Part shown: positions 34,388 to 64,000 of the stretch, piece by piece | How positions within the stretch are numbered: the first letter of the stretch is position 1 | How the letters are laid out: each line of letters starts with the position of its first letter | From: Clarias gariepinus | Lineage: Eukaryota | Assembly: GCF_024256425.1 (NCBI RefSeq) | Contig: NC_071110.1 | Coordinates: forward strand, 2,380,274-2,444,273 | DNA: 64,000 nt | Direction: 5' to 3' | Translations under genes and position numbers: made by a program | The notes under the pieces: model-generated | What the model was told of the DNA's origin: nothing | The model's input: the letters and a program-made list of their open reading frames with translations, nothing else | Databases searched by the model: none

Positions 34388-34945
34388 ATGAGGGAAGCCG
34401 CGCCGCTCCAGCCGGACCCGAGTCCTGATATGGAGGCTCAGCATAACTCACGCTGCACTGGTCCGAGTCTGGAGAACCGGATCCTCACCCAGGCCTCACC
34501 ATTTCTCCTCCAGCCTCCTTCATGGGCGAACCTGACCTTGTCATGTCCAGCTCTCCGTCCATCCAGCCTGTCCTCTACAGCCTTGTCCTCTTCTCTGCTG
34601 TCCACCTCATCCAGCCTGTCCTCTACAGCCTCGTCCTCTTCTCTGCTGTCCACCTCATCCAGCCTGTCCTCCACAGCCTTGTCCTCTCCCCTTTTGTCCA
34701 CCCCATCCAGCCTGCTGTCCTCCTCTCTGCTCAGCACTGAGAACACTCAGTTGATTTCTAACCCCATTACTGGCTCTTCTTTCTGCTCTTCCCAACCTCT
34801 GAGTTTACTGGTTCACAGCACAGCGCCACCCACTGGCCCAGAAGCTCATAAATGTCTCAGTGGTAAACCTGGAGAGACAAAAATAGAGGATGATGAAGTG
34901 TGCTCCACTGATGATCTCTCGTCATACAGTGAGGAGCTAAATGAG
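34388..34945 (+). CDS. tep1: tep1 exon 1 (first coding exon; N-terminal serine-rich repeat region)
   Basis: ATG at 34388 in an A-rich context. The ORF 34388..35029 encodes GPSLENRIL...LQPPSWANL, which resembles the human TEP1 N-terminus motifs (ILSLENRCLA, LSEPPSWRAQ). It contains three tandem 20-aa Ser/Leu-rich repeats. Donor is GTATGT at 34946, and the exon ends in phase 0. Confidence 0.65.
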
Positions 34946-35494
34946 GTATGTTTTTGCATCAGCTTTAATAATATCCTTAGAAGGTTTATGCATTACTTTA
35001 AAGACAGGACAGGATTGCTTTTTATTTAAATGTGGGATCAGTGATTTCTTTCGAATTATTAAATTTCTTTTTACCTTTAACAAAACTCTTGCTAACACTT
35101 CAAGCCACTTATAGTCCACATTCCACAAGGAGGCGTCTCTACTTGGATCTACTTTGGATTTATCTACACTGATTTTTTTTTTTTTTCAAAACTATGAAAT
35201 AACATATAGAGCATTAGGCAATTAAGTAACAACAAAAGCAACAGTTAGTTGTTATATTAAGACACGAAGGTCAGCTGTTCTGGAACAGTTCTTGCAAGAC
35301 CAGTATTGTTAAGTGCATTTGCAAAACCCATCAAGCTACATGACAAAACTGTCTCTTATGAAGACCTTTCCAGGAAAGCAAGACCCAAACTGAACTCTGC
35401 TGCAGAGGAGAAGTTCATTTAGAGTCACCAGCCTCAGAAATCACCAATTAACAACCAGCACCTCAGATTAGAGCCGTTATGAAGCTTTACAGAG

Positions 35495-36965
35495 CAGAAG
35501 TAACAGATATACAGTGGTGTGAAAAACTATTTGCCCCCTTCCTGATTTCTTATTCTTTTGCATGTTTGTCACACAAAATGTTTCTGATCATCAAACACAT
35601 TTAACTATTAGTCAAAGATAACACAAGTAAACACAAAATGCAGTTTTTAAATGATGGTTTTTATTATTTAGGGAGAAAAAAAATCCAAACCTACATGGCC
35701 CTGTGTGAAAAAGTAATTGCCCCCTGAACCTAATAACTGGTTGGGCCACCCTTAGCAGCAATAACTGCAATCAAGCGTTTGCAATAACTTGCAACGAGTC
35801 TTTTACAGCACTCTGGAGGTATTTTGGCCCACTCATCTTTGCAGAATTGTTGTAATTAAGCTTTATTTGTGGGTTTTCTAGCATGAACCGCCTTTTTAAG
35901 GTCATGCCACAATATCTTAATAGGATTCAGGTCAGGACTTTGACTAGGCCACTCCAAAGTCTTCATTTTGTTTTTCTTCAGCCATTCAGAGGTGAATTTG
36001 CTGGTGTGTTTTGGGTCATTGTCCTGCTGCAGCACCCAAGATCGCTTCAGCTTGAGTTGACGAACAGATGGCCGGACATTCTCCTTCAGGATTTTTTGGT
36101 AGACAGTAGAACTCATGGTTCCATATATCACAGCAAGCCTTCCAGGTCCTGAAGCAGCAAAACAACCCCAGACCATCACACTACCACCACCATATTTTAC
36201 TGTTAGTATGATGTTCTTTTTCTGAAATGCTGTGTTACTTTTACGCCAGATGTAACGGGACACGCACCTTCCAAAAAGTTCAACTTTTGTCTCGTCGGTC
36301 CACAAGGTATTTTCGCAAAAGTCTTGGCAATCATTGAGATGTTTTTTAGCAAAATTGAGACGAGCCTTAATGTTCTTTTTGCTTAAGTGGTTTGCGCCTT
36401 GGAAATCTGCCATGCAGGCCGTTTTTGCCCAGTCTCTTTCTTATGGTGGAGTCGTGAACACTGACTTTAATTGAGGCAAGTGAGGCCTGCAGTTCTTTAG
36501 ATGTTGTCCTGGGGTCTTTTGTGGCCTCTCGGATGAGTTGTCTCTGTGCTCTTGGGGTAATTTTGGTCGGCCGGCCACTCCTGGGAAGGTTCACCACTGT
36601 TCCATGTTTTTGCCATTTGTGGATAATGGCTCTCACTGTGGTTCGCTGGAGTCCCAAAGCTTTAGAAATGGCTTTATAACCTTTACCAGACTGATAGATC
36701 TCAATTACTTTTGTTCTCATTTGTTCCTGAATTTCTTTGGATCTTGGCATAATGTCTAGCTTTTGAGGTGCTTTTGGTCTACTTCTCTGTGTCAGGTAGC
36801 TCCTATTTAAGTAATTTCTTGATTGAAACAGGTGTCGCAGTAATCAGGCCTGGGGGTGACTACAGAAATTGAACTCGGGTGTGATAAACCACAGTTAAGT
36901 TATTTTTTAACAAGGGGGCAATCACTTTTTCACACAGGGCCATGTAGGTTTGGATTTTTTTTTCC
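35495..36965 (-). mobile_element. Tc1-like DNA transposon with TIRs; transposase frameshifted
   Basis: The terminal inverted repeats are CAGTGGTGTGAAAAACTATTTGCCCCC at about 35513 and its complement GGGGGCAATCACTTTTTCACACAGGG at about 36910. Inner inverted copies lie at 35690..35730. ORF 36367..36750 carries the HTH N-terminus. ORF 35856..36413 carries the DDE domain. Confidence 0.8.
35856..36750 (-). pseudogene. Tc1 transposase (HTH plus DD34E), single frameshift
   Basis: Two overlapping ORFs in different frames. Motifs present: GKGYKAISK, DETKVELFG and WPSQSPDLNPIE. Confidence 0.8.
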
Positions 36966-38204
36966 CTAAATAATAAAAACCATCATTTAAAAAAATGCCA
37001 CAAGTAACCACAAGTAATGAAACATTAACCATTTGTTTCTTTATATTATAGTACCATGAAGTTGTTTGGGATTAATGATACATTTATCACTAGTATCAAG
37101 ACATTGCTTCAGAGTATTATAACATCACTTTGTAGTTATAACTTGCGCTGTAGTATCATTAAGTTGCTTCAGAGAATAATAAGTTATTTTTGAGCTATGA
37201 TGCCAGCAGTACAAATATATTGCTTTTTTGGGTTATGATGTATTGCTCAGGTGTACCAGTAAGGCAATAATTCCAATAATAGTACCAGTAGTAGTACCAA
37301 TAATTCTTTCCAGTGTATTATTATTTTCCTCTGGAGTAATTATATAATTCAATGAATCATTCTGAAGTCAATCTGGAGTAATGATAATTTGCTCAGTACA
37401 AAAATTTAGTTACTTATACTGGTGCCATGATATGAACAGAATTAGAATTTGTTTTGGAGTATTATATTTCTTAGTTGTTTCCCAGAAGTAACACTAAGTA
37501 TGCTTTCTGAAATACTGTTGGGTCAACCCACAGTCCCTGTTAGTCATGCTACATGTCTAACTTTCATCTGAGTAACTATACTCAGACTATAAATAGACTG
37601 CATCAAACTAACTATAAGTCACTCTTGAATAACCCTGTCTGCTTCTTCTAAATCGCTTCCATTCAGAGAACTGAAAATATTAATAATATAATATGTCATA
37701 AAACCAAATATTATAACAGTTGCAAATAAAAAAGGCCACACACAGTGCATCTATCCCAGGTTTAAAGAGTGAAATAATTTGTTATCCAATTAGTGTTAAT
37801 TTTGTCAACGAAAATAATGATGAAAAATATTTGTTGTAGACATTATTTCCTGGGACTAAGACGAGACGTTAACGAGACGTCAGGGATATTAGTGAACAAT
37901 AACAGTGATGAAAGCAGCATGCAATATCGGCTACGAAAAAAGACGAGACTAAAATGTGGTTTAAAAAATATAAATACAGTGTAACCTTGGATTACGAGCA
38001 TAATTCGTTCCGGGAAGCGGGCTTGTATTTCAAAACACTCGTTAATCAAATTGAATTGTCCAATAAGAAATAATGGAAACTCAAATTATTTGTTCCACAG
38101 CCCCCCCCCCAAAAAAAACTACACAAAATATAAAGAAAAAAAAATTTTAACAAATTAACCTTTACCTTTAAAAAGAATCTCAACAGAGCAGTGTTTCCAT
38201 TAGA

Positions 38205-38258
<54 letters not shown>
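38205..38258. repeat. (TG)n microsatellite, about 27 units
   Basis: Direct read. Confidence 0.95.
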
Positions 38259-38262
<4 letters not shown>

Positions 38263-62891: not shown

Positions 62892-63264
62892 GTAGGGTTT
62901 TATAGCAATCCAACATTTTCAAGAGGTTAAAGAGTCCTGTATTAATGCATAAACACTTGACCCTGCCCGGTTATATTTTATGTTGTCCTTCCGGCCGTAG
63001 CCCCTTATTGATTTTTTTTCCCTACACTTTTACTAGAAAAGGGGAACGAATTAAACAAGCCACTCTGTCCTGAAGCATTCGGTACGTTCGTCTATGCCTC
63101 TTCATCTTAGCTGATGCATCCCAGAAATTTAGCTTCAGGTTTTTTTTGTTTTTTTGTCACACTGATGTTTACATGACCATATGTCATATATTAATAGTTA
63201 GCAGTAATATATCTGTACATATCAATACGATTTAACCCCATTATAAACATCGTCATCTCCACAG

Positions 63265-63472
63265 ATGGCTCAGACGAGGTTCTGGCTTGTCTTTCGTTCC
63301 TCAAGCGCCACGCCCCCCTCCTCTGTCATTGGCCAACTCTGTTTGTGCAGCAAGCCCTAAATGAACCAGATGCCTCAGCTGCTCATATCTGGGCTAAATG
63401 TGCAGTCGAGGAAGGAAACGTCCATGCTGTCAGATGGATGAACAAGTCCCAAGAATCCCGACAGGAATCTGG
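63265..63472 (+). CDS. tep1: tep1 exon 31 (pre-WD region)
   Basis: Acceptor CTCCACAG at 63257-64 and donor GTAGGA at 63473. It encodes (D)GSDEVLACLSFLKRHAPLLCHWPTLFVQQALNEPDASAAHIWAKCAVEEGNVHAVRWMNKSQESRQES. Confidence 0.65.
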
Positions 63473-63634
63473 GTAGGAATCACTCTATGCCCTCTGACTT
63501 ACCCCACTTTAATAAAAAAGAAACCAAATTTTTATATAAATGCTTTTAACAATTTGTTTACTGTTCAGATAACATTATTTTTGTTGTATATTATTTATTT
63601 GTCAGCAGTGTGTAATTCAGTGTTTGTAATTCAG

Positions 63635-63758
63635 CAGTGAGCTGGTTTCCACATTTCAGTGGACTCCATCGTGTGTGTCTCTGAGTCCTACTGGACGTTT
63701 CATGGCGGTGGGGACAGTATATGGTTCTCTCCATATCTACCATACTCACACTAACCAG
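63635..63758 (+). CDS. tep1: tep1 exon 32 (first WD40 repeat)
   Basis: Acceptor AATTCAG at 63628-34; the AG at 63658-59 is phase-incompatible. Donor GTAACA at 63759. It encodes (G)SELVSTFQWTPSCVSLSPTGRFMAVGTVYGSLHIYHTHTNQ, which has WD40-repeat character. Confidence 0.65.
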
Positions 63759-63870
63759 GTAACAGCCACAGCTCCATCCTCATCTCATTTCCTGTTAGGT
63801 ATATAATTATTGTAGAGAGAGAGACAATTTGATAATTCTCCTTTTTGTTGTTTTCTCTCTCTCACAAAAG

Positions 63871-64000
63871 GAAGTAAAGTCACTGATTAGTAATTGTGAT
63901 GGGATCTCAGGCTGTGTGTTTCTGGATGATTGTGTTCTGTGGTCAACCTCGTATGATGGCCAGGTGGAGGCGTGGGACATTAACAGTGGCTGCAGGTTAG
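63871..64000 (+). CDS. tep1: tep1 exon 33 (WD40; runs off the window edge)
   Basis: Acceptor CACAAAAG at 63863-70. It encodes EVKSLISNCDGISGCVFLDDCVLWSTSYDGQVEAWDINSGCR, with a WD-type ...AWD ending. The open frame continues to the window edge. Confidence 0.7.

Follow-up and report, generated by a model that had tools for sequence, protein, structure and literature searches.

TEP1, the product of tep1, is a minor protein of the vault particle that binds RNA and cleaves NAD, and the human protein is 2,627 amino acids long. Human TEP1 combines TROVE, vWA-like, DUF4062, NACHT and WD regions, an architecture that has been described together with its binding of vault RNA (PMC7916137). The DUF4062 block of human TEP1 is a TIR-like NADase (bioRxiv 10.64898/2026.05.01.722283; 10.64898/2026.09.04.749371). 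Parts of this arrangement also occur in other proteins. In Ro60 (RO60/TROVE2) and bacterial Rsr, which bind small non-coding RNAs, a vWA domain comes after the TROVE ring (PMC7916137). In NWD1 and NWD2 (and also in NPHP3 and TTC41), DUF4062 adjoins a NACHT NTPase, after which come a helical domain and repeats, but these proteins lack TROVE and vWA domains.

In this study, we analyzed a 64,000-nucleotide stretch of Clarias gariepinus contig NC_071110.1 (hereafter, the window). Positions 34388-64000 of its plus strand almost certainly belong to an intact teleost tep1 and contain its 5' two-thirds, with 34 GT-AG exons coding for the first 1,741 residues. The gene model was rebuilt from the raw window, from the ATG at 34388, with no other ATG between it and the preceding in-frame stop, to the window end. 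Its coding sequence of 5,224 nt has 33 junctions, and the spliced reading frame of 1,741 codons has no stops. The same ATG and exclusively GT-AG introns had been proposed in an initial annotation, which also gave sizes of 4.1 kb and 7.2 kb for introns 1 and 4 (4,124 and 7,189 bp by measurement). Its count of 33 exons did not hold, as the homology-supported model has 34 in the window. Later introns are 73-900 bp long, and the intron between exons 16 and 17 (53098-56366) is 3.3 kb. Position 34388 is a predicted 5' end, and a non-coding upstream exon is possible.

The protein alignments span the whole model. In BLASTP searches, a single segment covered model residues 1-1740 (10-1740 in the case of P0121). 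P0121 (XP_062873352.1) is a "telomerase protein component 1-like" protein of the catfish Trichomycterus rosablanca and is 63% identical; P0125 (KAL7832341.1), an unnamed 2,618-aa protein of the characiform Acnodon oligacanthus, is 62.5% identical over its residues 1-1768. Among named relatives, a catfish and a characiform are the closest. P0126 is 48% identical and the tetrapod TEP1 proteins are 38-43% identical; TEP1 of Polyodon (paddlefish), Elgaria (lizard) and Rhinatrema (caecilian) was among the matches. P0121, P0126, P0136 and P0139 are all named "telomerase protein component 1(-like)" in their sources. The Trichomycterus and Acnodon proteins are colinear with the model from Met1 to the first WD blades and share its domain order; they are 62-63% identical to it overall, and 80-86% identical within the DUF4062 exon. 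A short N-terminal region carrying a single SLENRIL motif is common to both of them and the window protein, but they lack the expanded 16-aa Ser/Leu repeat of its exon 1. P0125 continues into the second and C-terminal beta-propeller families of TEP1, whereas the window contains the first 1,741 residues only. In a MAFFT alignment the junctions were free of gaps, except at two points that prompted refinement of the model.

Splice sites were also mapped onto two contigs from other fish, L001 and L002; exons 33 and 34 lie outside this comparator DNA. The acceptor AG was present at precisely the homologous base in 46 of 47 testable cases and the donor GT in 49 of 50 (both contigs taken together), against a background of 4.4-5.0% when these sites are displaced by 1-30 nt (binomial P ~1e-61 and 1e-62, respectively). 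Both sites are conserved in both comparators at exons 3, 5, 7-13, 17, 23-26 and 28-31, and conserved AG and GT were likewise found at exons 4 and 18-22.

The domain order is an N-terminal low-complexity region, TROVE, DUF5920 (vWA-like), DUF4062 (TIR-like), NACHT, a helical region and the first WD blades, with TROVE, DUF5920, DUF4062 and NACHT identified by Pfam. Exon 1 (34388..34945, aa 1-186) carries the start codon, the SLENRIL motif and the Ser/Leu repeat; it aligns with P0125 from Met1 onward, and its donor GT is conserved in both comparators. Exon 2 (39070..39243, aa 187-244) encodes an acidic linker with weak but positional conservation (31-33%), its GT being present in both contigs and its AG in L002. 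The TROVE match (E 7e-107, aa 234-672, profile positions 10-442 of 442) forms one stretch over exons 2-12. The N-terminal part of the domain lies in exon 3 (39497..39646, aa 245-294). Exon 4 (39774..39938, aa 295-349), which is 87% identical to L002 and has a Pfam TROVE match on a single open reading frame, is followed by the long intron 4 and exon 5 (47128..47265, aa 350-395). Compared with the human sequence, the TROVE linker that follows exon 5 seems shorter. The domain continues through exons 6 (47393..47464, aa 396-419), 7 (48330..48451, aa 420-460), 8 (48940..49097, aa 460-513; 73-75% identity), 9 (49614..49723, aa 513-549; a Pfam TROVE match on its open reading frame and LRNLRNM at 49643-49663), 10 (49833..49911, aa 550-576; 88% identity, FPFRFLSAY at 49857-49883) and 11 (50313..50502, aa 576-639), and ends in exon 12 (51394..51610, aa 639-711).

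Exon 6 is absent from the 33-exon drafts, and its inclusion is predicted. This 72-nt exon of phase 0/0 occurs in the full-length reference proteins and also in L001 and L002, where its homologue has a GT at the same codon. Its product, ELSPEKWNEWAKLLAAEPRTLKGY, fills a 28-aa gap relative to P0121, P0125 and P0126, and with it the TROVE match scores 358.8 bits rather than 346.6. Omission of exon 6 leaves the frame open, and therefore a phase check cannot expose its loss.

The DUF5920 match (E 9e-25, aa 715-877) begins in exon 13 (52010..52162, aa 712-762). In exon 14 (52456..52524, aa 763-785), FFNKLLEEKTK is conserved in both comparators, the donor GT is conserved, the acceptor score is strong and the sequence is colinear with the reference proteins. 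Exon 15 (52631..52752, aa 786-826) gave no tblastn match in the comparators, being too diverged, although a homologous open reading frame is visible in L001; it is colinear with P0121 and P0125, with both junctions gap-free. Exon 16 (53026..53097, aa 826-850) has VTLCGFSEQIL and a donor GT conserved in both contigs and an acceptor chosen by score, and DUF5920 ends in exon 17 (56367..56513, aa 850-899). The acceptors of exons 2, 14 and 16 are putative, as they were placed by scores and colinearity only. That of exon 2 is the least certain because a 2-3 aa gap adjoins the exon 1/2 junction in the MAFFT alignment.

DUF4062 (E 9e-12) lies in exon 18 (57343..57634, aa 899-996; 83-86% identity to the comparators), which includes a 15-residue motif at 57359-57403. 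The TIR-like domain continues in exons 19 (58103..58224, aa 997-1037) and 20 (59125..59238, aa 1037-1075, its C-terminal part). The only strong PDB match, 11gz_A, "Telomerase protein component 1" (E 7e-69), which is the TIR-like NADase domain of human TEP1, covers exons 18-21, is colinear across three splice junctions and ends in exon 21 (59419..59536, aa 1075-1114). Human residues were mapped through the 11gz_A offset of 893. In this alignment, catalytic human Glu1008 corresponds to Glu1010 (codon 58142-58144, in the SVTEMEI motif of exon 19), and, of the three active-site arginines, R908 and R976 correspond to Arg912 and Arg978 in exon 18. Arginine R954 of the human BB loop coincides with a gap of two residues and has no aligned counterpart in the fish protein, so that regulation of the NADase may differ.

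NACHT (E 5e-13) starts in exon 22 (59780..59968, aa 1115-1177; Walker A GGAGVGKTT at 59936-59962, Lys1173), continues through exons 23 (60107..60294, aa 1178-1240) and 24 (60509..60650, aa 1240-1287; Walker B LLIDGADL at 60570-60593), and ends in exon 25 (60794..60973, aa 1288-1347). Exon 26 (61047..61139, aa 1348-1378; 90% identity) contains PLYLRLACEEL (61083-61115). The helical region after NACHT includes exon 27 (61587..61719, aa 1379-1423), with AG and GT conserved in L001 and GT in L002. Exons 28 (61868..62027, aa 1423-1476), 29 (62364..62497, aa 1476-1521), 30 (62598..62686, aa 1521-1550), 31 (62777..62891, aa 1551-1589) and 32 (63265..63472, aa 1589-1658) follow. For exon 31, the acceptor at 62738 scored higher than 62777 and was ruled out by homology. 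For exon 32, whose AG and GT are conserved in L001 with the same phase 1, an acceptor at 63205 chosen in the first pass proved incorrect. A tandem acceptor of exon 33 lies at 63635, and the reference proteins favor 63638. The first WD-type blades (63651-63987) gave weak Pfam beta-propeller matches (aa 1663-1737). They comprise SLSPTGRFMAVGT in exon 33 (63638..63758, aa 1658-1698), colinear with P0121, P0125 and P0126, and YDGQVEAWD in exon 34 (63871..64000, aa 1699-1742), which has an acceptor AG, is colinear with the reference proteins and is cut by the window end. Only ~80 residues of WD sequence fall within the window; the remaining ~800-900 residues of WD40 propellers would lie past its end. 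All motifs named in the initial annotation are on the plus strand in the order it gave.

The initial annotation regarded consistent codon phase as very unlikely by chance. By itself this is weak evidence, because the splice sites were chosen under a phase constraint and at most junctions there are several phase-compatible GT..AG pairs to choose from. Wrong models can also be open: the first-pass model, in which three acceptors were wrong and an exon was missing, was open over 1,751 codons, and a score-only join (52135|56332) stayed in frame despite skipping three real exons. A chance concatenation of short open reading frames that keep phase is nevertheless already refuted, its probability being practically nil in view of the TROVE E-value, the 63% identity to an annotated TEP1 across 1,740 residues and the splice sites conserved across two fish contigs; it is this homology that carries the model beyond chance. 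Artificial joining of two adjacent genes, one Ro60-like (TROVE/vWA) and one NWD-like (DUF4062/NACHT/WD), is highly improbable. DUF4062-NACHT-WD40 is indeed common to NWD1/NWD2 and TEP1, and a 3.3-kb intron separates the halves, but exons 13-17 join in frame and together form one DUF5920, two other fish conserve the splice sites on either side of the junction region, the annotated TEP1 proteins of five vertebrates span the whole model in one alignment, and the best solved structure for the DUF4062 part is TEP1 itself. Solved TROVE proteins (9l5y/9kop) matched weakly (E 6e-07), as did Pfam vWA_Ro60; these ~500-residue chains have no DUF4062, NACHT or WD match, and the Ro60-type match is distant compared with the full-length match to TEP1.

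A decaying or redundant, merely tep1-like paralogue (pseudogene) is improbable as well. The locus lies in very transposon-rich DNA, the last third of the gene is beyond the window, and a single Trichomycterus contig encodes two TEP1-like proteins, so the copy here could be one of two paralogues. Against decay, 5.2 kb of coding sequence in 34 exons shows no stops or frameshifts, all splice sites are canonical, and the catalytic and nucleotide-binding motifs are intact. An intact tep1 accounts for these data, and the earlier TEP1 interpretation is borne out by the full-length match to annotated TEP1 and by the domain order. Unlike in NWD1/NWD2, the predicted TROVE and DUF5920 exons are spliced in frame upstream of DUF4062/NACHT, which argues against a separate TROVE transcript; the same colinear arrangement is found in annotated TEP1 proteins and two other fish genomes. 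The predicted product is thus supported as a TEP1 orthologue, neither NWD1/NWD2 nor Ro60. Apart from the exon count, nearly everything observed initially in the sequence stood; the label "vault RNA-binding STAND ATPase" is no longer complete, since in human TEP1 the DUF4062 block acts as a TIR-like NADase.

Overall, tep1 is already a well-known gene, and the copy here is an ordinary one at an ordinary locus. Since Glu1010, Arg912 and Arg978 are kept, the fish protein most likely has the same chemistry as mammalian TEP1. As in the mammalian protein, the TROVE ring, together with the vWA-like module, would bind vault RNA (and telomerase RNA) and bring vault RNA into vault particles, the WD propellers would contact partners, and the NADase would probably be switched on via oligomerization driven by the NACHT NTPase.

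The locus looks like an intact, ordinary tep1 orthologue in transposon-rich DNA. Between 34388 and 64000, the ORF list holds merely short open stretches, and it was in these plus strand ORFs that the motifs of the initial annotation, a hand-built gene read from raw sequence, were located. Pfam searches with single ORFs identified TROVE in two places (39774-40154 and 49595-49783) and DUF4062 in one (57299-57763). Among solved chains, the DUF4062 exon matched 11gz_A ("Telomerase protein component 1") with an E value of 2.5e-35. When the same exon was used as a query in a word-indexed protein search, the matches consisted solely of exon-sized fragments from gene calls of the prokaryotic type, and full-length TEP1 was not among them. 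Two of the exon-sized fragment matches came from long NCBI contigs, L001 (GCA_977065575.1) and L002 (GCA_977066275.1), which served as genomic comparators; their DUF4062 exon is nearly identical to a fragment from the cyprinid Sinocyclocheilus, and we judge both contigs to be cyprinid-like.

Comparison of translated, stop-free plus strand stretches with the two contigs revealed 26 colinear conserved blocks extending from 39449 to 63470. GT and AG sites were scored with a phase constraint, and the gaps were then searched at higher sensitivity and by eye. The gap search added exons 1-3, a group of three short exons in the 52162-56367 interval and, where the window stops, a pair of WD exons; it also gave the correct donor for the exon whose last base is 56513. 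After refinement, the model consists of 34 exons separated by GT-AG introns throughout, with an open frame of 1,741 codons. The initial annotation had recovered almost the whole of a gene with more than 30 exons, although its count of 33 has to be raised by one; its lengths for introns 1 and 4 agree with those of the rebuilt model (4,124 and 7,189 bp, respectively).

Our first full model also had 33 exons and an open frame of 1,751 codons, though its acceptors were partly wrong: those at 62738 and 63205 were ruled out by comparator DNA and replaced by 62777 and 63265. When junctions were chosen by score alone, the donor of exon 17 and the acceptors of exons 31 and 32 were misplaced, exons 14-16 were lost to a false in-frame join, and exon 6 was missed; each of these errors was corrected by homology. 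If an in-frame exon is left out or an acceptor is displaced, an open frame and consistent phase cannot show it. We mapped each exon to its position in L001 and L002 and examined the dinucleotide at exactly the homologous base, counting just those cases in which the alignment reached to within 2 residues of the exon end. The acceptor AG was conserved in 46 of 47 cases (binomial P about 1e-61) and the donor GT in 49 of 50 (P about 1e-62), against backgrounds of 4.4% and 5.0%, respectively, at the same sites shifted by 1-30 nt. It is this cross-species conservation of splice sites, and not phase consistency, that lifts the model above chance. Downstream of exon 32, no homologue of exon 33 was recognizable in L001, and exons 33-34 are without a genomic comparator. 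The acceptor of exon 33 is a tandem CAGCAG (NAGNAG; 63630-63640), in which either 63635 or 63638 preserves the reading frame, with a difference of one serine; 63635 adds one extra residue to the alignment, and the reference proteins favor 63638.

Exon 6 was found through the reference proteins. A MAFFT alignment of the 33-exon model with the three full-length fish proteins P0121, P0125 and P0126 contained a 28-residue hole between the former exons 5 and 6, and a 72-nt phase 0/0 exon at 47393-47464 (CACAG/GAG at the acceptor and TAT/GTGAGT at the donor) closes this hole. Homologues of this exon are present in both L001 and L002, with the GT at an identical codon, and with its addition the Pfam score for TROVE increased to 358.8 bits, from 346.6. 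Upstream of exon 6, a (TG)n microsatellite at 47349-47392 stops ten bases short of the acceptor AG and replaces the polypyrimidine tract, which in L001 and L002 is an ordinary C/T-rich one, CCCTCTTCTTTCAG. TG repeats adjoining a 3' splice site favor exon skipping, as in the case of CFTR exon 9, and the (TG)n tract may influence inclusion of the in-frame exon 6. We consider it improbable, however, that exon 6 is a species-specific cassette whose skipping is set by repeat length and removes 24 residues from a loop of the TROVE domain.

The predicted protein contains, in its N-terminal half, a TROVE domain (PF05731, aa 234-672, E 7e-107), which spans profile positions 10-442 of 442 without interruption and is encoded by exons 2-12. 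It is directly followed by the vWA-like DUF5920 (PF19334, aa 715-877, E 9e-25), a family that Pfam also finds in the full-length reference P0125, and then by DUF4062 (PF13271, aa 904-1012, E 9e-12) and NACHT (PF05729, aa 1162-1333, E 5e-13). In the NACHT domain, the Walker A (GGAGVGKTT, aa 1167-1175, with Lys1173) and Walker B (LLIDGADL, aa 1261-1268) motifs are both intact. WD sequence within the window is limited to two blades at aa 1663-1741, which correspond in the alignment to the beginning of the propeller region in P0121, P0125 and P0126; matches to beta-propeller families at aa 1663-1737 are sub-threshold, including PF25047 at E 1e-4. Since P0125 has the TEP1 second and C-terminal beta-propeller families (Pfam) further on, the missing third of the gene should lie beyond base 64000, where some 20 further exons for the WD40 propellers (PF25047 and PF25048) are predicted within about 15-25 kb. 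TEP1 has been described as having, in this order, N-terminal repeats, TROVE, vWA, NACHT and WD repeats (PMC7916137), and the domain order of our model is identical.

Two other protein families share parts of this architecture. NWD1 and NWD2 are DUF4062-NACHT-WD40 proteins, but they start with DUF4062 and are without TROVE, whereas here about 900 residues with TROVE and DUF5920 precede it; the passage from TROVE/DUF5920 to DUF4062 is one open frame with conserved splice sites. Ro60 (TROVE2) combines TROVE with vWA, and the DUF5920 region indeed has a weak match to vWA_Ro60 (PF25045, E 0.007), but Ro60, at about 540 aa, terminates behind these two domains, whereas our model continues stop-free into the DUF4062, NACHT and WD exons. 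Together with colinearity of the whole model with annotated TEP1 proteins, the order of TROVE, DUF5920, DUF4062 and NACHT shows that the initial annotation was right to interpret the gene as TEP1.

Full-length references were obtained by an exhaustive search of representative proteins with exon 18 alone as the query. Among the highest-scoring representatives longer than 2,000 aa, it identified proteins of 2,000-2,800 aa in which the domain lies about 850-1,000 residues from the N-terminus, so that the position of the DUF4062 exon is as expected for TEP1. The references included telomerase protein component 1-like from Trichomycterus rosablanca (P0121), a hypothetical protein from Acnodon oligacanthus (P0125), and telomerase protein component 1 from Polyodon spathula (P0126), Elgaria (P0136) and Rhinatrema (P0139). 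In the MAFFT alignment with P0121, P0125 and P0126, the model stays colinear from Met1 up to the point where the window cuts it off, and the junctions are gap-free except in two places. BLASTP aligned model residues 1-1740 as one segment with proteins of 2,081-2,618 aa, four of which are named telomerase protein component 1(-like) in their source; identity was 63% for P0121, 62.5% for P0125 (subject residues 1-1768 of 2,618), 48% for P0126 and 38-43% for tetrapod proteins. Over the 26 exons matched in all five comparison sequences, identity was 67.4% for the catfish P0121, 66.5% for the characiform P0125, 63% for L001 and L002, and 54% for the paddlefish P0126. There was no near-identical match, and these values do not favor a zebrafish origin, which the check proposed in the initial annotation took for granted. 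In Trichomycterus rosablanca, P0121 and P0263 are two different proteins named telomerase protein component 1-like (2,081 and 2,572 aa), which have recorded contigs of equal length, presumably one and the same, and fall into one 90% cluster; tep1 may be tandemly duplicated in that species, or its annotation may be split.

The N-terminus has just one SLENRIL-type motif and lacks the N-terminal features described for mammalian TEP1, which do not define the protein outside mammals, and exon 1 gave no Pfam family match at E values up to 0.1. In the annotated fish proteins P0121, P0125 and P0126, the N-terminus is equally short and aligns with that of the model. The short N-terminus is a lineage difference and no argument against TEP1 membership. 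Within coding exon 1, a 48-bp tandem repeat (34560-34714; 3.2 copies, 92% matches) encodes a 16-aa Ser/Leu-rich unit, SSLSSTALSSSLLSTS. Because the unit occurs about once at most in the catfish, the characiform and the comparator contigs, the repeat is a species-specific coding minisatellite of the Tep1 N-terminus.

Transposable elements, most of them in minus orientation, make up almost all of the 34 kb upstream of tep1 (1-34387), and no host gene was recognized there. Minus-strand regions include a Harbinger-type transposase (DDE_Tnp_4) at 2323-2916, putative retroelement-like ORFs at 7614-13353, a Ty3/gypsy-type pol at 15069-18500, a LINE (20367-23840) that encodes endonuclease, RT and RNase H, a 445-aa ORF at 24127-25464 and a LINE-like ORF at 27458-29980. 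The LINE and the 445-aa ORF coincide with a strong negative GC skew at 20-26 kb, down to -0.49. Rfam and tRNA scans revealed no vault RNA, tRNA or other non-coding RNA gene, their sole match being an UnaL2 LINE 3' element at 11219-11272.

Transposon or repeat content is present in introns 1 and 4, which partly bears out their earlier description as filled with repeats. Intron 1 carries, on the minus strand, a Tc1/Sleeping Beauty-like transposase at 35856-36750 in two overlapping ORFs (HTH_SB and HTH_Tnp_Tc3_2, then DDE_3), presumably a frameshifted dead copy. Intron 4 contains two unclassified repeats: a direct repeat of roughly 310 bp (40782-41089 and 42020-42326, 1,237 bp apart, 91% identity) and a 71-nt inverted repeat (43194-43492, 94% complementary, 157-nt spacer). 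On its minus strand, a 195-aa ORF at 45606-46193 matches ALKBH8_N (Pfam, E 9e-11) and adjoins a (GATT)10 array at 45650-45690; rather than a host gene, this ORF probably represents the tail end of a retroelement reading frame. In the 3.3-kb intron 16, two short minus strand ORFs at 53173-53718, the one at 53173-53418 with a weak DDE_3 match, look like a Tc1/mariner remnant.

Recently, DUF4062 was characterized as a TIR-like NADase in two 2026 preprints (bioRxiv 10.64898/2026.05.01.722283, 10.64898/2026.09.04.749371). According to these studies, human TEP1 cleaves NAD+ and NADP+ in an E1008-dependent manner, R908 and R976 contribute to activity, R954 lies in the BB loop, and an increase in specific activity at higher protein concentrations suggests that oligomerisation activates the enzyme. 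The human chain 11gz_A aligned with model exons 18-21 at E 7e-69, with all three junctions gap-free, and four published residue numbers set the chain-to-protein offset at 893. On the plus strand, Arg912 (57380-57382) and Arg978 (57578-57580) are the counterparts of human R908 and R976, and Glu1010 (58142-58144) is that of the catalytic E1008. In contrast, R954 falls opposite a two-residue gap in the fish alignment and has no aligned counterpart. Given the conserved catalytic glutamate, the NADase activity of human TEP1 is predicted to be common to this fish Tep1, and the NADase activity reported for the human protein has to be added to the functional picture in the initial annotation.

TEP1 binds vault RNA via TROVE, with vWA helping; vault RNA is absent from the vaults of TEP1-deleted mice, and telomerase activity does not need TEP1 (PMC7916137). 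From sequence conservation, we infer binding of vault RNA or telomerase RNA, residence in vaults and NAD+ hydrolysis, all known properties of mammalian TEP1, for this fish Tep1. With its conserved domains and residues, it would act in the vault particle as a NADase that is loaded with RNA and controlled by NACHT.

Since tep1 is already a known, well-annotated vertebrate gene and the locus is ordinary, it matters little as a discovery. Its two uses are a lesson in method, in that a tool-less reading of raw DNA gave nearly all of a gene with more than 30 exons, and the prediction of NADase activity for this fish Tep1, whereby fish could be models for the still unexplained function of the vault particle.
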